DNA of 53,289 bases. Origin: Nitrospira japonica. Its GTDB lineage: Bacteria; Nitrospirota; Thermodesulfovibrionia; Thermodesulfovibrionales; SM23-35. Below the pieces are notes generated by a model that had not been told where the DNA came from, did no database searches, and worked only from the letters and a program-made list of their open reading frames with translations. The position numbers and the translations under genes were made by a program. Positions 15,790 to 27,080 of the stretch are shown here, one piece after another. Numbering within the stretch: position 1 is the first letter of the stretch; each line of letters begins with the position of its first letter. The stretch lies in contig DYFC01000021.1 of the NCBI GenBank assembly GCA_020725385.1, positions 1 through 53,289 on the forward strand, in the 5' to 3' direction.

Positions 15790-17076
15790 ATGAAGAAATT
15801 AGTTTATATACATACATTTGGTTGTCAGATGAATGTTCATGATTCTGAAAAAATGCTTGGAATCTTGGAAGGGAAGGGCTATCAAGAGACTGATCAGCCT
15901 TCGAAAGCTGATTTAATAATTTTTAATACTTGCAGTATAAGGCAAAAAGCTGAACAGAAGTTTTACAGCGAACTTGGCAGAATAAAATCTTATAAAAAAA
16001 GACATAAAAATCTAAAAATTATTGTTGCAGGGTGTATAGCACAACAAGAGGGGAAAAATATTTTTAAGAAAGCACCACATGTCGATTTTATAATAGGACC
16101 ACAAAATATCCATAATCTCGAAAAAATACAAGATGAAAAACAAGTATTAATTGAAGAAAATGCAGACATAGCAATAAATGATCTTCCTGTAAAACGTAAC
16201 AATAATGTATCTGCATGGGTTACTATAATGTATGGTTGTAATAATTATTGCAGCTATTGTGTTGTACCTTATACAAGGGGCAGAGAAAGGTCTCGTCCGA
16301 GTGAAAATATCTATAAAGAAATAACTGAACTTGCAGCAAAAGGATACAAAGAAATAACACTTCTTGGACAAAATGTAAATTCATATTACAGTGATATTAA
16401 TTTCACGCAGCTATTGAGAAAAATCAATAAAATAGAAGGAATCGTAAGAATTCGATTTGTGACATCTCACCCAAAAGATTTATCAGAAGATTTAATATAT
16501 GCAATTCAAGAGCTTGATAAGGTCTGCGAACACATACATTTGCCTTTGCAATCAGGTTCTGATGAGATACTTGTAAGAATGAATAGAAGATATTCTTTGA
16601 AAGATTATATGAAAAGAGTGAACATGTTAAGAAAAAAGATTCCAGATATATCAATCACTTCAGATATTATTGCAGGATTTCCCGGTGAAAATGAAAGTGA
16701 CCATAGAGCTACTTTGAAAGCTTTAAAAGAAATAGAATTTGATGGTATATTTGCTTTTAAATTTTCACCAAGACCTGGCACAAAAGCGGAAAAAATGGAT
16801 AATCAAATAGATGAAAATATAAAATCTGAAAGGCTTTCTGAAATACTTAGTTTGCAAGATAAAATTACCGAGAAAAAAAATAAATCACTCGAAGGAACTA
16901 TTCAAGAAATTTTAATAGAAGGTTATGACGAATTGAATGTTAATAGATTATCAGGCAGAACCCGTACAAATAAAATAGTTACAATAGATGCATATAACTT
17001 TAAACAAGGCGATATAATCAATGTTTTTATATCAAAGGGGAGAAAACATTCTCTTGAAGGGAATCCTCTGATTTAA
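15790..17076 (+). CDS. miaB: tRNA (i6A37) methylthiotransferase MiaB
   Basis: TFGCQMNVHDSE, NTCSIR, radical SAM CNNYCSYC, VPYTRGRERSR, TRAM domain. Confidence 0.95.
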   Translation: MKKLVYIHTFGCQMNVHDSEKMLGILEGKGYQETDQPSKADLIIFNTCSIRQKAEQKFYSELGRIKSYKKRHKNLKIIVAGCIAQQEGKNIFKKAPHVDFIIGPQNIHNLEKIQDEKQVLIEENADIAINDLPVKRNNNVSAWVTIMYGCNNYCSYCVVPYTRGRERSRPSENIYKEITELAAKGYKEITLLGQNVNSYYSDINFTQLLRKINKIEGIVRIRFVTSHPKDLSEDLIYAIQELDKVCEHIHLPLQSGSDEILVRMNRRYSLKDYMKRVNMLRKKIPDISITSDIIAGFPGENESDHRATLKALKEIEFDGIFAFKFSPRPGTKAEKMDNQIDENIKSERLSEILSLQDKITEKKNKSLEGTIQEILIEGYDELNVNRLSGRTRTNKIVTIDAYNFKQGDIINVFISKGRKHSLEGNPLI

Positions 17077-18314
17077 TGAAAGTTTCAATCCTTACACTCG
17101 GTTGCAGAGTAAATCAAGCAGAAAGTTCATTTATAGAAGGTAATCTAATAAATAATGGAATATCTATAGTTGATTTAAAAGATAAACCAGATTATTGCAT
17201 TATAAATACATGCTCGGTTACCTCAAAAAGTGACTACCAATCAAGACAACTTATCAGAAGAGCTTTAAAAACAGGGTCAAAAGTAATTGTAACCGGCTGT
17301 TATACACATCTTAATTCAGAGAGTATATTAAAAATAAATAAAGAAATTGTAGTTGTGCCTAATAATTTAAAACATAATATAATCAAAATGATAGATGATA
17401 ATATTAAAATTAATAGTTTAAGTTATTCTTTTAACTCACGTCCATATTTAATAATTCAGGTTGGATGTAATAATAAATGTTCCTATTGTATAGTAAGAAT
17501 TGTACGTGGAAAATCAAAAAGTATTCCTATAGAAAAAATAATAGAGCAAATCAAAAATTTCTCTGAATCAGGTTATAATGAAATTGTACTTACAGGTATT
17601 CATATTGGTTCATATGGTCATGATCTTGAACCTAAAGTAAAACTTTCAGATTTAATCAAAACTATCTTAGTTAAAACAAATATTATGCGCATTAGATTAA
17701 GTTCGCTTGAAGTTACCGAGATAGAAGATGAATTTTTAGACATGATGAATGACAATAGAATATGTAATCATCTACATATTCCAATGCAAAGCGGAGATGA
17801 TAAAATACTTAGACTTATGAATAGAAATTACGATACAAGATTTTATTCTTCAAAAATTGAAAAAATAGCGAAAAAAGTTAACAATATAAACATTGGAACT
17901 GATATTATTGTTGGATTTCCGGGTGAGACTGAAAAAGAGTTTTTTAATACGAAAAAACTTATTTCTGATTTACCAATATCTTACATTCATATTTTCCCTT
18001 TCTCAGCTAGAGAAGGAACTCCTGCTTATAACTATAACGAGCAAATAAATAATGTGGAAAAGAAAAAAAGGTGTTTAGAGTTACAATCTATAAATAAAAT
18101 AAAAAAGAAAAATTATTATGAGAAGCAACTCGGAAAAGAATTAAATATTATTATTGAAAAAAAGAATAGTGAAAATTTATATACAGGCACATCAGAGAAT
18201 TTTCTAAAGATCCCTGTCATATCAAGCGATTTGCCTTTAAAATCATGCATAAAATCGAAGATTATACAAAATGAAAAAAACAACCTTATAGGAATCCCCA
18301 TAAACAAAATATAA
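17076..18314 (+). CDS. mtaB: tRNA (t6A37) methylthiotransferase MtaB
   Basis: TLGCRVNQAES, INTCSVT, CNNKCSYC, LTGIHIG, HIFPFSAREGT. Confidence 0.88.
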   Translation: MKVSILTLGCRVNQAESSFIEGNLINNGISIVDLKDKPDYCIINTCSVTSKSDYQSRQLIRRALKTGSKVIVTGCYTHLNSESILKINKEIVVVPNNLKHNIIKMIDDNIKINSLSYSFNSRPYLIIQVGCNNKCSYCIVRIVRGKSKSIPIEKIIEQIKNFSESGYNEIVLTGIHIGSYGHDLEPKVKLSDLIKTILVKTNIMRIRLSSLEVTEIEDEFLDMMNDNRICNHLHIPMQSGDDKILRLMNRNYDTRFYSSKIEKIAKKVNNINIGTDIIVGFPGETEKEFFNTKKLISDLPISYIHIFPFSAREGTPAYNYNEQINNVEKKKRCLELQSINKIKKKNYYEKQLGKELNIIIEKKNSENLYTGTSENFLKIPVISSDLPLKSCIKSKIIQNEKNNLIGIPINKI

Positions 18315-18446
18315 CATATTATAATTTCAGTATATTTTTTCTGCCTAAATCATAATCAAATTCGCTTAATTCTGCAATAGAGATGCCCGTTATATGTTTT
18401 TAAACATAATTAATAACAGTTTATTAACAATCATTGTTAATTTAAT

Positions 18447-18474
18447 ATGTCTGATAAGATATATTATGTAAAAT
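18447..18474 (+). other. dif: dif site (XerC/XerD chromosome dimer resolution site)
   Basis: ATGTCTGATAA-GATATA-TTATGTAAAAT: 11-6-11 layout; the XerD arm differs by one base from the E. coli TTATGTTAAAT. Intergenic location. Confidence 0.85.
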
Positions 18475-19053
18475 AATGAATGTTCTTTTTATTTTTTGTT
18501 ATACTATTACCCTTTTTCCTATATATGAACTTATTAAAAGACAGATAATGAATTTAATCTTTTTAATATGTTACAGATGCTCTTTTTTGTAATTATTCAT
18601 GTTTTTAGTTTAAAATTAATAATTCCTGTATCAAATTCTTATAGCATATGCTTTTAAAATAGAACAATTTATTTTGGAATATTATTTAATCACTTTAAAA
18701 ATTTAATATAATATATTGTAATTTAATAAATAATTTGATTAACTTTAAGAAAATATTTAAAGAACTAAAAATAGACATAATTTTTTTAAATTACTAATTA
18801 ATATTATTGATGTAATATTGCATTAAATATGATAATTTTCTTTTTCAATAAAAATTAAATTTTCTCAAAAATATTAGTTAATAAATCATTTAACTTTAAT
18901 AATATATATTTTTTTAAAGTTATACTTTCAGTTTTTAAATTAGTAGTTCTACTTCCGGATAATATATAGTTATTTTCTATTAATTTCTCATTTTCAATCA
19001 CTATTATCTATTTGTTAAAAAGTATTTAGATTAATAAAAATATATTAAATAAA

Positions 19054-19311
19054 ATGAATAGTTACGCTATAATTACTTTTCATAATTCTCATTTTGCATT
19101 AAAAGCAAAAAGAGTCTTTGATAATAATCGTTTGAAATCAGAAACTATACCTGTACCAAGAGAATTAAGTTCAGAATGTGGTTTCTGTTGTAAAGTTTTG
19201 TGGAAAGATAAAGACTTAGTAGAAAATGTTTTAAAGAAAAATAATATTGCTTATGAAAATATTTATAGATGGGAAGATAAAGCAAAAGGCAAGAAATTTA
19301 ATTTTGTTTGA
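19054..19311 (+). CDS. DUF3343 family putative Se/S carrier protein
   Basis: ITFHNSHFALKA and IPVPRELSSECG motifs; first gene of the yedF operon. Confidence 0.8.
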   Translation: MNSYAIITFHNSHFALKAKRVFDNNRLKSETIPVPRELSSECGFCCKVLWKDKDLVENVLKKNNIAYENIYRWEDKAKGKKFNFV

Positions 19312-19326
19312 AAGAAGGAGGATTTA

Positions 19327-19938
19327 ATGTCTATAGAAATAGATGCAAGAGGGCTACCCTGCCCTCAACCTGTAATTAAAACAAAAGAAGGCTTAGAAAA
19401 AGCTAAAGGAAAAGAATTAGTAATTATTGTTAGCACATCTGAATCAAGGGATAATGTTCTTAGATTTTTATCTCATTCAGGTATAAATATTAATAAAGTT
19501 GAAGAAAATAACGGTTCATTTTATATATATACTGAAAAAACAAATAGAATACCTATAAATGTTGAAAAAAATGAATATATATGTTCAACCTCACAAATAA
19601 ATTTTGGAACGACTATTTTTATTAATAAAGACCGTATTGGACATGGCAATGACGAACTTGGCTATAATCTTATGAAAGCTTTCATAACAACAATTAAAGA
19701 TTTGTCTGTCCAGCCTAAGACTCTATGTTTTATGAATAGCGGGGTAAAACTTACAGTTAATGGGGCTGAAACTATTCCATATCTTAAGAATTTAGAGGAA
19801 AAAGGCATTGAGATTCTTGTATGCGGGACATGTCTTAGCTTTTACAATATCAAAGATAAATTAGCTGTCGGAAAAATTTCGAACATGTATGACATTTCTG
19901 AAACTATGCTAAAATCTTCCAAAGTCATTACTATATAA
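19327..19938 (+). CDS. yedF: selenium-metabolism sulfurtransferase-like protein YedF (TusA + DsrE domains)
   Basis: IDARGLPCPQPVI (TusA CPxP), GxxELG..LM..F, NSGVKL, CGTCL, GKISNMYDI; RBS AGGAGG. Confidence 0.88.
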   Translation: MSIEIDARGLPCPQPVIKTKEGLEKAKGKELVIIVSTSESRDNVLRFLSHSGININKVEENNGSFYIYTEKTNRIPINVEKNEYICSTSQINFGTTIFINKDRIGHGNDELGYNLMKAFITTIKDLSVQPKTLCFMNSGVKLTVNGAETIPYLKNLEEKGIEILVCGTCLSFYNIKDKLAVGKISNMYDISETMLKSSKVITI

Positions 19939-21095
19939 TGAGAAAAAAAGTTGTTTATTTTGATAATGCAGCAACATCTGGAATTAAACCGCCTTCTGTA
20001 ATTAAAGCTATATGTGATTGTCTTAAGAAAAAAAATGCTAATCCCGGTAGATCAGGTCATAGTCTTTCTGTAAAAGCTGCTGAAATAATTTATAGTTGTC
20101 GAGAAAAAATAGGCGAATTATTTAATTTTGATAAGACTGAAAATATAATTCTCACTAAAAATGCTACAGAATCTCTTAATATTGTCATCAACGGTATCTT
20201 AAATACAGGAGATGAAGTTATTACGACTTCAATGGAACATAACTCTGTATTAAGACCATTAACTTATTTAAAGGAAAAAAGGCATATTAAAGTAACGATA
20301 ATTAATGCAGATTTAAACGGTCAGATAAATCCAAAAGACATTTTGAATTCAATATCAGATAAAACAAAACTTATAGTAGTTACTTCTGCATCAAATGTTA
20401 CAGGGACTAAAATGGATGTAGAAAAAATAAGAGAAATCGCTCAATATAACAACATAAAAATTCTTGTAGATGCAGCACAAGGAGCAGGAACAGTAAAAAT
20501 TGATTTTAAAAAATCCCCATTTGATTTTATTGCAATTACAGGCCATAAACATCTTTTTGGACCGCAGGGTACGGGTGCTTTAATTATTAAAAATAATGAA
20601 GAACTTGAACCTTTAATGTTTGGTGGAACTGGAAGTCAATCAGAGAAAATTATTCATCCAGGTTTTTTACCGGACAAATTTGAATCTGGCACGCTTAATA
20701 CGCCCGGTTTTGCTGGATTATCCGCAGGTATTGAATTTATTTTAGGTAAAAAGATTGAAAATATAATCAGCTATGAAAAACAGTTAACAAATTATTTAAT
20801 AAAGAAATTAAAAGAAATTGAAGAAATTACTATATATGCAGCAAATGTAGAAAGAGTATCCACTGTTTCATTCAATATTAACGGATTCCAGCCATCAGAA
20901 GTCGCAGATTATTTAGACAAAAATCATGGAATCTGTGTACGTTCCGGGCTCCATTGCGCACCTGAAGCTCATAAGACCATAAATACATTTCCAAACGGTA
21001 CAATAAGATTTTCGTTGTCATATTTTAATACTAAGGAAGAAGTTGATACCTCAATTAACGCCTTGAAATCATTTATTATCAAAAATAAGAATTAG
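19938..21095 (+). CDS. class V PLP cysteine desulfurase/selenocysteine lyase family protein
   Basis: YFDNAATS, NPGRSGH, DAAQGAG, TGHK (PLP Lys), RSGLHCAP (catalytic Cys). Confidence 0.9.
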   Translation: MRKKVVYFDNAATSGIKPPSVIKAICDCLKKKNANPGRSGHSLSVKAAEIIYSCREKIGELFNFDKTENIILTKNATESLNIVINGILNTGDEVITTSMEHNSVLRPLTYLKEKRHIKVTIINADLNGQINPKDILNSISDKTKLIVVTSASNVTGTKMDVEKIREIAQYNNIKILVDAAQGAGTVKIDFKKSPFDFIAITGHKHLFGPQGTGALIIKNNEELEPLMFGGTGSQSEKIIHPGFLPDKFESGTLNTPGFAGLSAGIEFILGKKIENIISYEKQLTNYLIKKLKEIEEITIYAANVERVSTVSFNINGFQPSEVADYLDKNHGICVRSGLHCAPEAHKTINTFPNGTIRFSLSYFNTKEEVDTSINALKSFIIKNKN

Positions 21096-22966
21096 TTAAT
21101 TAATTGCCTCGTATCTCCCACTCTTTTAGTCAATTTAATAGCATCAAAATACTCAAGAAAATGAATTGCACACTTTCTATTTGTTGGAAAAATATCTTTG
21201 AATTCTCTGACTGTAATAAAAGGTTTTTCCCTGAAAAAGTTTCTCAGATTTTCAAGCCCTTTTTTATAAGAATCTGATTTAACATAAATAGAATTGCTTA
21301 TTTTTATTACTAGACCTTCCTTTTCCATTAATTTCAATATATTTAATATATATTTTTGTTCAATGTTAAGGATTTTGCTTAATTCCTCTATATTAGGTGG
21401 TTCTGTACCTGTTTTATTAAGTATTTGAAGTATTAAATCTTTATTGATTTCATCCTTCTTATTTAATAAAGGTTTAAAAGAAGAAAGTCTAACAATATCT
21501 TTTTCTATATAAATATCTTTCAAAGATGATAAAAGGCTGTTGAATATCTTAACATCTACTTTTATATAATTCCTGAGTTCTTCTTTTGGAATTCCGGGTT
21601 TTATCGGGTTATTTTCATGGTATTCCTTTAACTTTTTTATTATTATATCTTGAAAAATTCTAATAGCTTCAGAATGAAAAATAATATCATCATATTGGTA
21701 AACCAATTGCTTCGACCTCAAATCATTTAAAGATTGATATATTTCGGGTATATCTGCATTTATCCAGCCCTCTAATGTAGATAATCTTATACCATTTATT
21801 GATGTTCTTTTAATTCTTAATGCAATTTTTTCAGCTAAAGTACCATCATCGAAAAAAGTTAACTCATTAATGCTTTTTTGATGACTAATTTTATATGATG
21901 AAGGGTCAAGTATTTCACCTCCACCTATTGTATCAATAGGTGTAACTCTTCTAATTATAAATCTATCACCCGACATTGCAATCACCGGTTCGTTAAGCCG
22001 GAATTGACAATAACAAGTTTCACTCGGTTTTAATTCATTTTTTCCATATAATATAGTCCTTGCAGGTTTTTCGGAAGTACCTATGTGAAAATGTACAATC
22101 TCTCTATTTTTAAGACTTTTTACATGAGATAGTAATGTTACCTTTGCATCGATTTGATATGCAGGAACTAATTTATCAATGTTCACAACAGTATCTCCTC
22201 TTTTTAATAAATCCCTGTCAACTCCCTGAAGATTTATTGCAACTCTTTGTCCTGCATAAGCTTCGTTAACACTTTGACCGTGACAATGTAACCCTCTAAT
22301 TTTAGTTCTTACTTTACATGGGAGAATATCAACTTCTTCTCCAACACTTATTTTTCCAGAAAAAACAGTTCCGGTTACTACTGTGCCGAATCCTTTCAGT
22401 GTAAAAACTCTATCAATAGGCAGCCTAAAAATTCCTTTTGTTGATTTTGGATTAACTTTCAAAGATTCTTGTTTAATTTTCTCTTTCAATAATTCAATAT
22501 TCTTCATTGTGATAGTCGAAACATTAATTATTTCTGAATTTTCAAGAAAGGAGTCTTTTAGAAATTCTTTGACATCTTCTGTTACAAGATCAAGCCAATC
22601 TTTATCGACAAGATCGCATTTAGTAATTGCCACAATCCCTGATTTTATTTTTAAGAGATTGCATATATTAAAGTGTTCAATACTTTGCGGCATAATTCCC
22701 TCATCGGCAGCTACTACGAAAAGTACAATATCTATACCACCTGCACCTGCTAACATATTTCTCACAAGACGTTCATGTCCTGGCACATCTACAATTCCAA
22801 CTGTAAGTCCATTAGTATATTTAAGGTAAGCAAAACCTAAATCAATTGTTATTCCACGTTCTTTTTCTTCTTTTAGTCTATCGGGGTCAATACCTGTTAA
22901 TGCTTTAACTAAAGCGCTTTTTCCATGGTCAATATGTCCTGCGGTACCTAAAATTATATGATGCAT
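21092..22966 (-). CDS. selB: selenocysteine-specific elongation factor SelB
   Basis: [43 protein letters not shown] and full-length winged-helix C-terminus ([12 protein letters not shown]...RVGDTR). Start at MHHIILG, 624 aa. Confidence 0.95.
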
Positions 22967-23003
22967 TTTTTTATAGAAATAAGAATATAAAAACTGTATT
23001 CTA

Positions 23004-23099
23004 TGGAGAGGGGTAGTGGGAATCGAACCCACCATAGCTTCTTGTCCAGAGCATCCACTGGTTTTGCAGACCAGGCGGGGCCCAGCCCCGATACCCCTC
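23004..23099 (-). tRNA. tRNA-Sec-like tRNA with Cys anticodon GCA and U73 (selC*-like tRNA-Cys)
   Basis: Minus strand: GAGGGGTA T CGGGGC-TGG-GCCCCG C CTGGT-CTGCAAA-ACCAG [about 25-nt variable arm] GTGGG-TTCGATT-CCCAC TACCCCTC T CCA. 96 nt, 8-bp acceptor stem, 5-bp T stem. Confidence 0.92.
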
Positions 23100-23123
23100 G
23101 TTTGTATTTTATTATCGATTATA

Positions 23124-23153
23124 ATTATATGTAAAATAGCTTTTTTCTATCAA
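23124..23153 (-). promoter_or_regulatory. putative promoter for the tRNA-selB unit
   Basis: Minus strand TTGATA-18 bp-TATAAT. The AT-rich context lowers significance. Confidence 0.4.
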
Positions 23154-23334
23154 AAGATTATTAAATATAGATTGTTTTTCAATTTTACTAAACAAATTTC
23201 AAACAAGTTTATCAATTTTTCTAATGTCTTATTTTTTTCATATTAGTTTGAATAACAACATTCAGGTTTAATACAATTGACTAAGCAAAGATATTTTTGT
23301 TAACGTATTAAATCAAATCAACTCAGGAGATTTT

Positions 23335-23754
23335 ATGACAGATAAACACGTTAGTACGCATAAAAGCAGTAATAAGAAAAAAATAAATTTATCGCCCAGA
23401 CAACAGAAAATTCAAGAAATTAAGAAAAAACTTCTTTCACAAAGGAAAGAATTGCTTCTCGGAGCTTTAGAGGCATTAAATGAACTTCCAGGGCAAACTG
23501 TTTTTCCTGATCTTGGTGATCAGGCAACAGCTGAAATCGATCGCAATTTCATGCTTAGACTCAAAGGTAGAGAACAAAAGCTTTTGAAGAAAATTGATGA
23601 AGCCATTGAAAGGATTGAACAGGGCACATTTGGAATTTGCGATAGATGTGGACAGGAAATAAACATTAAAAGATTAGAAGCAAGACCTGTGACTACAATG
23701 TGCATTGATTGCAAAACACTTCAAGAGGAAGAAGAGAAACTAATGGAAACATAA
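23335..23754 (+). CDS. dksA: RNA polymerase-binding protein DksA
   Basis: PDLGDQA coiled-coil tip; zinc finger CDRC...RLEARP...CIDC. Confidence 0.92.
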   Translation: MTDKHVSTHKSSNKKKINLSPRQQKIQEIKKKLLSQRKELLLGALEALNELPGQTVFPDLGDQATAEIDRNFMLRLKGREQKLLKKIDEAIERIEQGTFGICDRCGQEINIKRLEARPVTTMCIDCKTLQEEEEKLMET

Positions 23755-24340: not shown

Positions 24341-25722
24341 GGCTATCAATTCTTGGTGCAGGTCCGGGCGGTTATGTTGCGGCTATAAGAGCTGCACAAT
24401 CAGGAATACATGTTACATTAATTGAAAAAGATGAAGTTGGCGGTACCTGTCTTAATAAGGGTTGTATTCCTACTAAGTCCATAATTGCATCATTAGAACT
24501 TTTTAAAAAAATAAAATTATCAGAACTATATGGTATCGATGTCCCTAACGGCTCAAAACCTAATTTAACCAAGATATTAAATCGAAAAAATAAAATAGTT
24601 CAAACCCAGATTAAAGGATTATACAATATTTTTAAATCGTATAGAATTGATATAAAAAAAGGCAAAGGATTTATATCTTCTCCACAGAGTCTTTTAGTAA
24701 CTTATAATAATGGTGAACAGGAAAAGATTGTTTCTGACAAAATTATTATTGCTACGGGTTCGAGACCATTTCAAATTCAAAATTTGCCGTATGACGGCAG
24801 AATAATAATTTCAAGTGATGATGCCCTGAATTTGCCAGAAATACCAGATGATATTGCTATTTTAGGAGCAGGGGCAATTGGTTGCGAGTTTGCCTGTATT
24901 TTTAGATTACTTGGCTCTAAGGTTACGTTACTCGAAATGCTTTCAAGACCTTTATCTAACGAAGACATTGAAATAACCGATATTTTACAACGCGAATTTA
25001 AGAAAATAGGAATTAGACTTATCACCGGTGTAAAGGTCGAAAAGACTATAGTAGAAGACAATTCAGTTATTATCCATATTGACAATGGAGATATAATTAG
25101 TTCAAAAAAATTACTTATAGCTACAGGCAGAGCTTTCAATAGTGAAAATATAGGGTTAGAAAATATTGGCATAATTAGAAGTCAAAGTGGAAAAATACCT
25201 GTAAATGAAAAATTTGAGACAAATATAAAGGGTATTTATGCAGTAGGTGATGTTATTGGGAATATGATGCTTGCACATGTTGCAGCCCGAGAAGGTATAA
25301 CTGCTGTGGATAATATTCTTGGCAATAATTCAACAATTGATTATAATTCTGTACCTTTGGTAATTTTTACATATCCAGAAATTGCATCGGTTGGGTTAAA
25401 GGAATTTCAAGCACAAGAGAGAGGAATTAAAATAAGGACAGGACATTTTCAATTTAGAGCACTTGCAAGATCCCATACTATAGGGGAAATTGATGGGCTG
25501 GTTAAAATAGTATCTGATGCTGATTCAGATAAGTTACTCGGGGTACATATTATTGGTCCTCATGCCTCTGATATTATTCATGAGGCAGCTTTAGCTATCA
25601 GAAAAGGGTTAAAAACTAAAGACATCATAGAAACTATCCATGCACATCCAACATTTTCAGAGGCAATTATAGAAGCAACTGAAGATATATATGGCATGGC
25701 TATACATGCTATTAAGAAATGA
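24337..25722 (+). CDS. lpdA: dihydrolipoamide dehydrogenase
   Basis: GAGPGGYVAA, GGTCLNKGCIPTK, HAHPTFSE. Confidence 0.95.
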   Translation: MRLSILGAGPGGYVAAIRAAQSGIHVTLIEKDEVGGTCLNKGCIPTKSIIASLELFKKIKLSELYGIDVPNGSKPNLTKILNRKNKIVQTQIKGLYNIFKSYRIDIKKGKGFISSPQSLLVTYNNGEQEKIVSDKIIIATGSRPFQIQNLPYDGRIIISSDDALNLPEIPDDIAILGAGAIGCEFACIFRLLGSKVTLLEMLSRPLSNEDIEITDILQREFKKIGIRLITGVKVEKTIVEDNSVIIHIDNGDIISSKKLLIATGRAFNSENIGLENIGIIRSQSGKIPVNEKFETNIKGIYAVGDVIGNMMLAHVAAREGITAVDNILGNNSTIDYNSVPLVIFTYPEIASVGLKEFQAQERGIKIRTGHFQFRALARSHTIGEIDGLVKIVSDADSDKLLGVHIIGPHASDIIHEAALAIRKGLKTKDIIETIHAHPTFSEAIIEATEDIYGMAIHAIKK

Positions 25723-27080
25723 TAAATAATTTTCAGCAAGACTGGCTAACCGAATCAAGAAAAAAACATTGGGAACTCTATTCTGAACTTAATGTACTTT
25801 TAAGAGCAGTTGATAGATTTTTTCATATAGATAATCTTAATATTTCTCAGAACGAACTTCCAGTGAAAAATTTTTATAATGAAATTAACTCATTACGTGA
25901 TGTTATCTTCAGAATACTCGCTATTTTTGAAGTAATTATTCCTGAAAATAAAAAAAATGCTTTCTGGTTCCAGAAGTATGCTGAATCAAAATTCTTTAGT
26001 TATTACACAAGAGATATTTTGAAAGAAAAGCTTTATAGTCAGGACTCTCCGGAAAAAAGCATCTTTTTAATGTATGACCTATTTATAAATTTAAAGGGGA
26101 TTATTACTGAATTGCTTAAATCAGGCGAAATACAATATAACAGCTTTATTAATATAGGACAGATTATAAGCAAAGAAATTAGAGGAAATAAATTTTTAAA
26201 CCCTTTCCATAAGGAAATAAGTCCTGAATTTGATACTATTAATAATCCTCCAATTACTGAGATCGTCAAAAAAATTAAAGAACCTGAAATCAAAAAGAAT
26301 ATATCCCTCATATATATTTATTTCTTCAGATTTTTAAGATTTCTCAAACATATTGATATTTCATCAAATGACACTATTTCATTGAATTCATCACTTTTAA
26401 TCTTAATCATGTTAAAGTCCGAATTAGATTTATTCCGGAATTTCTTAAAGAGAAATGCTTTATCAATTAAAAATGAGGAAATAAAATCATTATTAAATCT
26501 TATTTCGTATCAACTATCAATGGAAACCAAAAGGGTCTTTAATCAAGAATTAAAAGATATCTTTCAGAAAGAAAATGCGGATAATTTAAGAGGTAAAATC
26601 GAAAACAGCAAAGGTATTTTGAATAATCTAATAGAGCAAAGCATACTACAAATTACACAATACTTTAACAAAAATATTCAAGGAGAGGACATTTTTCCCA
26701 ACTTTATTGATAAATTATCTCAATCTATAAAACTCAGAGAAGATATATTTACACTTCATAGGTTTATAACGTTACTTGAAGAACAAGCTGCTGTGCCTGA
26801 AGTTGGTAGGGATATCTTTAAAGGAATGAAAAATTATATGAAGGATTTTCAACATTCTACATTTAGTCTGTTACGTTATGACGACTATAATGAATTCGCT
26901 GAGTTTTTTAATAAAATTTTTAATCTTCAATGGTTAGAGCAAGACCAAATATTAAAATTAACAAAAAGTTTTAAGATATACATAGAAACAACATTAAGAA
27001 ATATTGCTAATCGTTCTGAATTAAAAAATATATCCTTCGATGTAGATAAAGTTGAAGCAAATTTAAAAAAATATATATAA
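25719..27080 (+). CDS. hypothetical all-alpha protein
   Basis: 453-aa ORF coupled to lpdA by an ATGA overlap; no motif recognised. Confidence 0.6.
   Translation: MINNFQQDWLTESRKKHWELYSELNVLLRAVDRFFHIDNLNISQNELPVKNFYNEINSLRDVIFRILAIFEVIIPENKKNAFWFQKYAESKFFSYYTRDILKEKLYSQDSPEKSIFLMYDLFINLKGIITELLKSGEIQYNSFINIGQIISKEIRGNKFLNPFHKEISPEFDTINNPPITEIVKKIKEPEIKKNISLIYIYFFRFLRFLKHIDISSNDTISLNSSLLILIMLKSELDLFRNFLKRNALSIKNEEIKSLLNLISYQLSMETKRVFNQELKDIFQKENADNLRGKIENSKGILNNLIEQSILQITQYFNKNIQGEDIFPNFIDKLSQSIKLREDIFTLHRFITLLEEQAAVPEVGRDIFKGMKNYMKDFQHSTFSLLRYDDYNEFAEFFNKIFNLQWLEQDQILKLTKSFKIYIETTLRNIANRSELKNISFDVDKVEANLKKYI

Follow-up and report, generated by a model that had tools for sequence, protein, structure and literature searches.

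Does a tRNA gene that joins the body of a selenocysteine (Sec) tRNA to the identity elements of a cysteine (Cys) tRNA encode a functional tRNA, and if so, with which amino acid is the tRNA charged and which codons does it read? The question is raised by positions 23004-23099 of a 53,289-nt contig filed as Nitrospira japonica (DYFC01000021.1 of assembly GCA_020725385.1); the whole of this stretch was analysed and is called the window here. Analyses of the locus and of its relatives indicated that 23004-23099 is a real, conserved gene for a tRNA-Cys of tRNA-Sec build, of the kind published as selC*, and that it precedes a second selB gene, selB*. We propose that the gene is functional, that its product is charged with Cys and that SelB* delivers it to UGA codons marked by a selenocysteine insertion sequence (SECIS) hairpin, and we put the probability of this explanation as a whole at roughly 0.6. 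Within it, that the tRNA is a member of the selC* family which is expressed and charged with Cys is very probable, and that SelB* delivers it to SECIS-marked UGA is about an even call.

Structure of the tRNA gene and confirmation of its sequence

ARAGORN called a tRNA-Cys(gca) of 96 nt at 23004-23099 on the minus strand, and the Rfam tRNA-Sec model RF01852 matched 23008-23099 on that strand with 57.7 bits (gathering score 47, E 3.7e-9). The acceptor stem pairs 23099-23092 with 23015-23008 over 8 bp (GAGGGGUA/UACCCCUC, first pair G1:C72) and is followed by a single linker U. The D stem CGGGGC/GCCCCG (23090-23085 and 23081-23076), of 5-6 bp, closes a 3-nt loop; the anticodon stem joins 23074-23070 to 23062-23058 over 5 bp; the variable region takes up 25 nt (23057-23033); and the T stem GUGGG/CCCAC has 5 bp and no bulge, which makes an 8/5 acceptor/T branch of 13 bp. 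The anticodon loop CUGCAAA lies at 23069-23063, with G34-C35-A36 at 23067-23065, U73 is position 23007 and an encoded CCA end occupies 23006-23004. These assignments rest on ARAGORN, on Rfam, on a covariance model of the tRNA type (R1, see below) and on the alignment of relatives.

The original prediction, made from the letters alone, had described an 8-bp acceptor stem, a 5-bp T stem, a 6-bp D stem with a tiny loop, a long variable arm, a GCA anticodon and U73 at 23007, all of which were read correctly from the sequence. It had the anticodon bases one position off (23066-23068) and left the strand unstated. It had also held a sequencing error to be unlikely; the contigs of the public runs X1 and X4, which come from two studies, each span the whole tRNA and carried no differing letter at 23004-23099, and a contig of a third public run (X3) covered the 3' half with zero differences. 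Run X1 may be the source sample of the assembly. Since the contigs of X1 and X4 show identical tRNA bases, sequencing error is excluded.

Conservation of the tRNA type in Thermodesulfovibrionales

Forty relatives were screened with RF01852, and many of them gave second or third matches above the threshold. Twenty such places were fetched, of which 15 were called tRNA-Cys(gca) by ARAGORN, four were of the same type with longer variable arms and one was a truncated canonical tRNA-Sec; RNAalifold on the 20 aligned sequences returned an 8/6/5/5 cloverleaf. The covariance model R1, built from these fetched and aligned tRNAs, was then run on 151 genomes of the order and gave 79 matches of at least 68.6 bits in 74 of the genomes, with canonical tRNA-Sec scoring about 66 bits or less. 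The window tRNA scored 108.5 bits with R1, and the canonical tRNA-Sec of the same genome 59 bits. With 20 further R1 matches fetched from other families, 43 copies of this type were available. All 43 have the loop CUGCAAA and 41 end in U73-CCA, the exceptions being the copy of genome G002, which ends in TCCC, and a 153-nt copy on contig C74 of genome G001, which is without CCA.

Pairing was examined in an alignment of 44 distinct related sequences fitted to the model. In this alignment 97.4% of cells pair, 17 of the 24 pairs have changed on both sides (all eight acceptor pairs included) and compensatory changes are present in all four helices. None of 500 shuffles reached that pairing and covariation, and slid controls paired at 48-62%. 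The sixth pair of the D stem is weak, being unpaired in 15 of the 44 relatives.

These results bear on the possibility that the gene is artefactual, through mis-assembly or sequencing error, or else a selC duplicate in decay, a pseudogene without function. Such an origin would fit the degenerate-looking copies of G001 (C74) and G002 and another G001 copy that has only about 52 last selB* codons behind it. It does not fit the identical bases in contigs of two studies, the presence of the type in 74 of 151 genomes, the compensatory changes in all four helices, the retained identity elements or the purifying selection on the linked selB*, and it is effectively refuted by conservation and covariation. 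As roughly half of the genomes sampled from the order have the tRNA type, with or without SelB*, a comparative set is at hand for asking what SelB* contributes.

Several copies vary in build or setting. Very long variable-arm insertions, with total lengths of 119-168 nt, were seen at loci L083 (3391-3558), L045 (2174-2292), L159, L167 (2501-2627) and L046 (6175-6327); these genes keep all other arms, GCA and mostly U73-CCA. Genome G006 (L049, C1:1559000-1569500) has two selC* copies 5 kb apart, one of which is followed by selB* and the other by a gene for a multi-haem cytochrome c, with a DDE transposase adjoining. In G001, locus L047 (C29:1195-1475) is syntenic with the window, having dksA and gcvH alongside, and it is here that selC* is followed by only the end of selB*; C74, another short contig of that genome, carries an intact-looking selC*-selB* pair. 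The selC* and selD genes of relatives are often found near contig ends, as if repeated.

Selenocysteine and cysteine apparatus elsewhere in the genome

The genome of the window (G000; the window is its contig C15) is a Thermodesulfovibrionales/Nitrospirae metagenome-assembled genome of 2.46 Mb in 71 contigs, 96.6% complete. Among the 36 tRNAs that ARAGORN called in the assembly are the window tRNA, a canonical tRNA-Sec(UCA) on contig C13 (72 bits with RF01852, G73) and an ordinary tRNA-Cys(GCA) of 75 nt and 7/5 build on C37. A selA match of 628.5 bits lies about 11 kb from a second selB on the same contig (C52), and a full-length gene for cysteinyl-tRNA synthetase (CysRS), cysS, is on C21. A canonical selC(UCA), selA, a second selB, an ordinary tRNA-Cys and a full-length cysS, which the original prediction had named as genes to look for, are all present; selD, named along with them, was found neither by hidden Markov model (HMM) nor by tblastn. 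Because the canonical tRNA-Sec, the ordinary tRNA-Cys, selA and the second selB coexist with it, the window tRNA is an extra tRNA and not a mutated selC.

A short CysRS-like paralogue of 409 aa was also found (C47:26045-27274; loci L072/L133), away from selB*. It lacks the C-terminal domain, has HIGN in place of HIGH, keeps KMSKS, and carries Asp and Ser at two positions that are Cys and Glu in canonical CysRS and that we take to be zinc ligands. It was considered as a dedicated synthetase for the tRNA. It occurs in 16 of 41 relatives, 11 with selC* and five without, and at least seven selC* genomes have no such paralogue; by that distribution it is not an obligate partner, and kinship among the genomes inflates any association. 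The situation also differs from that of cysS* in Desulfobacterales, a gene downstream of selB* for a CysRS that has no anticodon-binding domain, as no CysRS copy stands next to selB* and the tRNA is of the GCA, G1:C72 kind, not UCA with A1:U72.

The selB* paralogue

The gene selB* (21092-22966, minus strand, stop codon at 21092-21094) encodes 624 aa in which Pfam models recognised the EF-Tu GTPase domain, domain 2, the SelB beta-barrel and winged helices 2 and 3. Its product matched TIGR00475 with 384.6 bits (cut-off 242) and is 58% identical to that of the other selB on C52. The ATG at 22966 is separated from the CCA end of the tRNA by 37 nt, the distance originally predicted, and this AT-rich spacer (22967-23003, minus strand) has no terminator-like site. 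A sigma-70-like promoter (TTGATA, an 18-nt spacer and TATAAT) was located at 23124-23153 on the minus strand, about 25 nt upstream of the 5' end of the tRNA. It is a pattern match only, with 11 of 12 consensus positions and the best site in 20900-23400, in a region where promoter-like sites were not above the level of shuffles (11 found, 13.3 expected). The tRNA and selB* probably share a transcript that starts at the tRNA's own promoter.

A SelB match was present in 41 of 41 genomes, a second one in a minority; in the family, 18 of 57 genomes had at least two SelB-like matches, some of them partial. A SelB tree was constructed by a quick IQ-TREE run on 55 rows, three partial rows (G003_L108, G003_L110 and G021_L109) having been dropped and the delta-proteobacterial SelB* sequences standing outside it. 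The SelBs preceded by the tRNA formed one clade, with a Shimodaira-Hasegawa-like approximate likelihood ratio test (SH-aLRT) support of 98, which comprised the proteins of G000, G001, G005, G006 and G007, two of G011 and one from a contig labelled Woesearchaeota. The clade was nested among ordinary SelBs of the same Thermodesulfovibrionales family, with a long stem (0.46) leading to G000, G005 and the Woesearchaeota-labelled contig. The tRNA lies directly upstream in all eight clade members (seven by ARAGORN, that of G007 by R1 in a 168-nt form), and a selC*-type tRNA was upstream of none of 43 ordinary SelBs of family or order type. On the evidence of this sequence tree, SelB* arose by a duplication specific to its lineage inside this Thermodesulfovibrionales family.

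Ratios of non-synonymous to synonymous substitution rates (dN/dS) were calculated against the sister genome G005 and were 0.090 for selB* (dS 0.71), 0.074 for selB and 0.076 for selA; all three genes are maintained by selection. Residues of the aminoacyl pocket have been named for the SelBs of Aquifex aeolicus and Escherichia coli (Phe, Asp-Arg, His and Arg), and L-cysteine is described as occupying the SelB pocket in a crystal (PMC4605307). The alignment showed that SelB* retains all of those residues. At 9 of 273 columns conserved in the 43 ordinary SelBs the SelB* clade differs, several of the changes falling in the last winged helix (R590K in 6/6, L593F in 4/6 and P602H in 3/6). A signature of specialisation for Cys was sought in the pocket and in the conserved columns, and neither the kept pocket nor the nine differences lead to a conclusion.

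The Woesearchaeota-labelled contig (L058, JAWABG010000076.1), filed under a metagenome-assembled genome of 'Candidatus Woesearchaeota archaeon', carries the same locus of selC*, selB*, desulfurase, yedF and carrier genes. The SelB* encoded there shows 94% identity to that of the window and clusters with this bacterium in the SelB tree; mis-binning of the contig is probable. A second kind of module was found in the same family in G019 (L054, contig C10) and as a partial copy in G021 (L109, contig C126), which combines an 8/4 tRNA-Cys(GCA), whose T stem contains a bulged A as in the published delta-proteobacterial form, with a SelB-like protein of only 35-42% identity. A SelB-like match of 36% on G171:C7, known by its coordinates, probably belongs to the same module. 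This 8/4 module with the bulge may be foreign in origin; the copy in G019 is about 4 kb away from selD.

Proposed charging, delivery and codon reading

The identity set of CysRS consists of U73 together with the GCA anticodon. These elements, and published assays on other family members, suggest that CysRS would charge the window tRNA with Cys. The 8-bp acceptor stem would be expected to keep the charged tRNA off EF-Tu, and SelB*-GTP would bind the Cys-tRNA and carry it to codons that have a SECIS hairpin downstream of them. Its main targets would be UGA codons of selenoprotein mRNAs, such as those of two formate dehydrogenase (FDH)-type genes in this genome and of selD in relatives, at which Cys would replace Sec, and the outcome may be a selenium-independent backup or starter route. 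The original prediction had left three options side by side. The first of them, a Cys-tRNA delivered by SelB, is the best supported; the other two, a Sec tRNA redirected to UGC and UGU codons (UGY) and a non-translational Cys carrier, stand as rivals to it. The 8/5 tRNA-Cys and its SelB* are a candidate orthogonal pair for SECIS-directed, site-specific insertion.

Several observations weigh against this proposal. The anticodon GCA is cognate for UGC and UGU, and the reading of UGA requires a G-A wobble mismatch. The tRNA keeps features used by seryl-tRNA synthetase (SerRS) and SelA, namely the long variable region and the Sec-type D arm, and U73 is counted as SerRS-compatible for allo-tRNAs (PMC5389517). 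With the pocket of SelB* unchanged, nothing marks a specialisation for Cys over Sec. No selB was adjacent to selC* at any of 20 loci from other families, and as most selC* genes are without an adjacent selB* and most genomes have a single SelB, SelB* is not generally required for the function of the tRNA. In G003, no selC* was found within 1.2 kb upstream of a partial SelB*-like gene (69% identity). The minimum-energy fold of the window tRNA taken as a single sequence is not a cloverleaf apart from the acceptor stem, so the structure rests on the comparison with relatives, and the variable region of the window copy pairs poorly by eye. There was no RNA run among the public runs listed as containing the tRNA stretch. 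Finally, selD was not found in this genome, and the published statement is that all selC*-containing genomes have selA-D (PMC5389517).

The retained SerRS and SelA features raise the alternative that this is a Sec tRNA redirected to Cys codons, which SerRS would charge, on which SelA would convert Ser to Sec, and from which SelB* would insert Sec at UGC or UGU codons accompanied by a SECIS-like hairpin. A precedent is the tRNA-Sec of Aeromonas salmonicida, which has the GCA anticodon and puts Sec at UGC (Mukai et al., Angew Chem 2016, as described in PMC11415595). Consistent with it, the window tRNA scores above the Rfam tRNA-Sec threshold, the 8/5 branch, Sec-type D arm and long variable region are kept across the order, the residues presumed to hold the selenolate are intact in SelB*, selA evolves under purifying selection (dN/dS 0.076) and U73 is acceptable to SerRS in allo-tRNAs (PMC5389517). 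Yet the set U73 plus GCA is kept in 41 of the 43 copies, the true tRNA-Sec of the genome has G73, the selC* members of other phyla that have been assayed were cysteinylated (PMC5389517), and selD, needed for any synthesis of Sec, was not found here. No UGY codon with a SECIS was identified, no systematic search for one having been made. We regard this redirection of Sec as unlikely.

The cognate anticodon also admits a Cys-tRNA which SelB* would deliver only to UGC and UGU codons beside hairpins specific to SelB*, as a dedicated or regulated supply of Cys with no recoding of UGA. In solved SelBs the last winged helix is the domain that binds SECIS, so that the changes of SelB* there may point to another RNA target, and the active-site Cys of the adjacent yedF genes is encoded by an ordinary Cys codon. 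Against this, the three winged-helix changes are conservative or non-uniform in the clade, no target hairpin was identified (a systematic search for UGY with a hairpin was not made) and the published assay of a member with GCA reports decoding of UGA (PMC11415595). Moreover, as the ordinary tRNA-Cys with EF-Tu already serves UGY codons, the benefit of such a supply is unclear, and we consider it quite improbable.

selD and its position in relatives

In the genome of the window selD was not found; the HMM matches were ThiL and HypE, and tblastn with SelD of the same genus gave no match. It was found in 38 of 41 relatives, every full-length copy of which has one in-frame TGA, and was not found in G000, the sister genome G005 (98% complete) or G024. 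By synteny with G002 (L122) and G015 (L042), the position held by selD in relatives corresponds to an AT-rich gap of 739 nt at 18315-19053. No remnant of selD was detected in this gap, tblastn with same-genus SelD having given no match on the whole contig, and positions 18358-18986 are covered without differences by the independent contigs X3 and X4.

A true loss of selD is opposed by the intact and constrained selA, selB and selC and by the retention of two FDH-type genes with TGA and hairpin. As the selD genes of many relatives lie near contig ends, an assembly gap at selD is possible. Should selD have been lost in the G000/G005 lineage, the SelB*/selC* pair might decode UGA without selenophosphate, in a selenoprotein expression independent of SelD. 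One variant of this would be constitutive insertion of Cys at UGA; in another, salvaged free Sec would be charged by CysRS onto the tRNA and delivered by SelB* with its intact selenolate-binding pocket, CysRS being reported as able to charge Sec onto tRNA-Cys (PMC11431864). The SelB*/selC* pair of the lineage is fast-evolving, and selA, selB and selC are kept, with selA and selB under purifying selection. We judge that this SelD-independent scheme is quite improbable. If the loss were true, the organism would be a natural experiment on a Sec system without selenophosphate.

Comparison with known systems

The selC* tRNA-Cys were defined by a Sec-like body, U73 and an anticodon GCA or UCA, and their listed hosts are anaerobes that include Thermodesulfovibrio and Nitrospirae (Mukai et al., Nucleic Acids Res 2017, PMC5389517). 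The window tRNA shares with them the Sec-like body with its long variable arm, the 8-bp acceptor stem, U73 and GCA, and likewise coexists with canonical selA, selB and selC; the published selC* genomes are described as having selA-D, and in the window genome only selA, selB and selC were found. A member with UCA inserted Cys at the UGA of selD in E. coli, and each phylum is described as having its own selC* arrangement (PMC5389517). In the main text of that paper selB* downstream of selC* of the 8/4 type is given only for Syntrophobacterales and Desulfobacterales, with cysS* in some. As in those clusters, the tRNA of the window stands directly upstream of a second selB on the same strand. In contrast to the delta-proteobacterial clusters, no cysS* follows selB* here and SelB* is nested, in the tree described above with the delta-proteobacterial copies outside it, among the SelBs of a Nitrospirae family; this nesting indicates that it was not inherited from a delta-proteobacterial copy.

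The original prediction had overrated the novelty of the tRNA, the selC* family, with Thermodesulfovibrio and Nitrospirae, and the selC*-selB* pair of delta-proteobacteria having been published (PMC5389517). The distinction that it drew between 8/5 and 8/4 holds against the delta-proteobacterial type of the main text, which is 8/4 with a bulged A51a and a branch of 12 bp, compared with the clean 8/5 branch of 13 bp in the window; the supplements of that paper may already draw an 8/5 form.

A second relative is the Sec-like tRNA-Cys(GCA) of Desulfotomaculum nigrificans (Vargas-Rodriguez et al., RNA Biol 2018), which is described as decoding UGA with Cys through SelB and not EF-Tu (PMC11415595). 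It has in common with the window tRNA the GCA anticodon, the Sec-like structure and the proposed delivery by SelB instead of EF-Tu; it is described as using the SelB of its organism, whereas the window tRNA is linked to a dedicated paralogue. The tRNA-Sec(GCA) of A. salmonicida is likewise Sec-shaped with a Cys anticodon, and the window tRNA differs from it, as described, in carrying the Cys discriminator U73. Compared with canonical tRNA-Sec (RF01852), the 8/5 branch, the D stem of the 6-bp type with its very small loop and the long variable arm are the same, and the tRNA-Sec of this genome has exactly the T arm of the window tRNA. The canonical tRNA has UCA and G73, and the window tRNA has GCA and U73, scores 57.7 against 72 bits with RF01852 and is separate from the true selC on C13. 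The canonical elongator tRNA-Cys, of 7/5 build with a short variable loop, differs from the window tRNA with its 8/5 branch and 25-nt variable region.

Full-text searches of the literature found no paper on a selB* in Nitrospirae or on a link between selC* and yedF, although the supplements of PMC5389517 may show either. What appears to be new here is the origin of SelB* by duplication inside this family, the linkage of selC* to yedF and selD, and the failure to find selD in this genome or in its sister. The separate duplication would represent a second origin of the dedicated factor, outside the delta-proteobacteria, and would strengthen the view that putting Cys in place of Sec at SECIS-marked codons is more than a curiosity and has been selected for.

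Selenium gene neighbourhood

Three selenium-handling genes on the plus strand are convergent with selB*. The first (19054-19311) encodes a putative Se/S carrier protein of 85 aa (PF11823, 73.6 bits, cut-off 25) and the second (19327-19938) encodes YedF, a sulfurtransferase-like protein of selenium metabolism with TusA and DsrE domains (TIGR03527, 209.8 bits, cut-off 110). The third (19938-21095) encodes a class-V aminotransferase resembling cysteine desulfurase or selenocysteine lyase, which scored 461.5 bits with TIGR01977, above the cut-off, and 334 bits with the SclA model, below its cut-off of 525; it is convergent with selB* and overlaps it by 4 nt. In G002 (L122) the carrier, yedF and desulfurase genes lie head to head with selD, the order in G015 (L042) is selC*, selD, carrier, yedF and desulfurase, and in G012 about 700 nt separate selC* from selD. 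A yedF-like gene was found within 2.5 kb of selC* at nine of the 20 loci from other families, in seven cases read as the immediate downstream neighbour of selC* on its strand, and near selC* at two of the 20 loci fetched earlier. None of the selC*-adjacent yedF genes has an in-frame UGA, and in the eight alignments that reach it the active-site Cys is an ordinary Cys codon. Elsewhere in the genome, on contig C27, the two FDH-type genes have an in-frame TGA at an ...AR(Y/I)-U-HS... site, followed by hairpins of -20.9 and -23.0 kcal/mol (shuffles -13.7 and -15.5).

This clustering speaks for a non-translational role, in which the charged tRNA would act as a carrier and supply YedF, the Se/S carrier and the desulfurase with Cys or with a persulfide or selenide adduct; the counts of neighbouring yedF-like genes, the position of selC* next to selD in G015 and G012 and the three genes next to selB* in the window all agree with it. 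Clustering with selenium genes is equally expected, however, of a translational role in selenoprotein synthesis, the invariant CUGCAAA loop (43/43) points to codon reading, and the GTPase and ribosome-factor domains are retained in SelB*, which is under purifying selection, so that a carrier role seems very unlikely. The tie to yedF, the Se/S carrier, the desulfurase and selD suggests that the tRNA helps to initiate selenium use or serves as its backup.

Two further features of the window lie around the selenium cluster. Upstream of it, at 15790-18314, are tandem genes for radical-SAM methylthiotransferases of the MiaB/MtaB type (UPF0004 and Radical_SAM, the first with TRAM); their nearness to a tRNA expected to carry a modified A37 may be a coincidence. 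Downstream of gcvH and a dihydrolipoyl dehydrogenase gene, positions 25719-27080 hold an open reading frame of 453 aa that matches no Pfam family.

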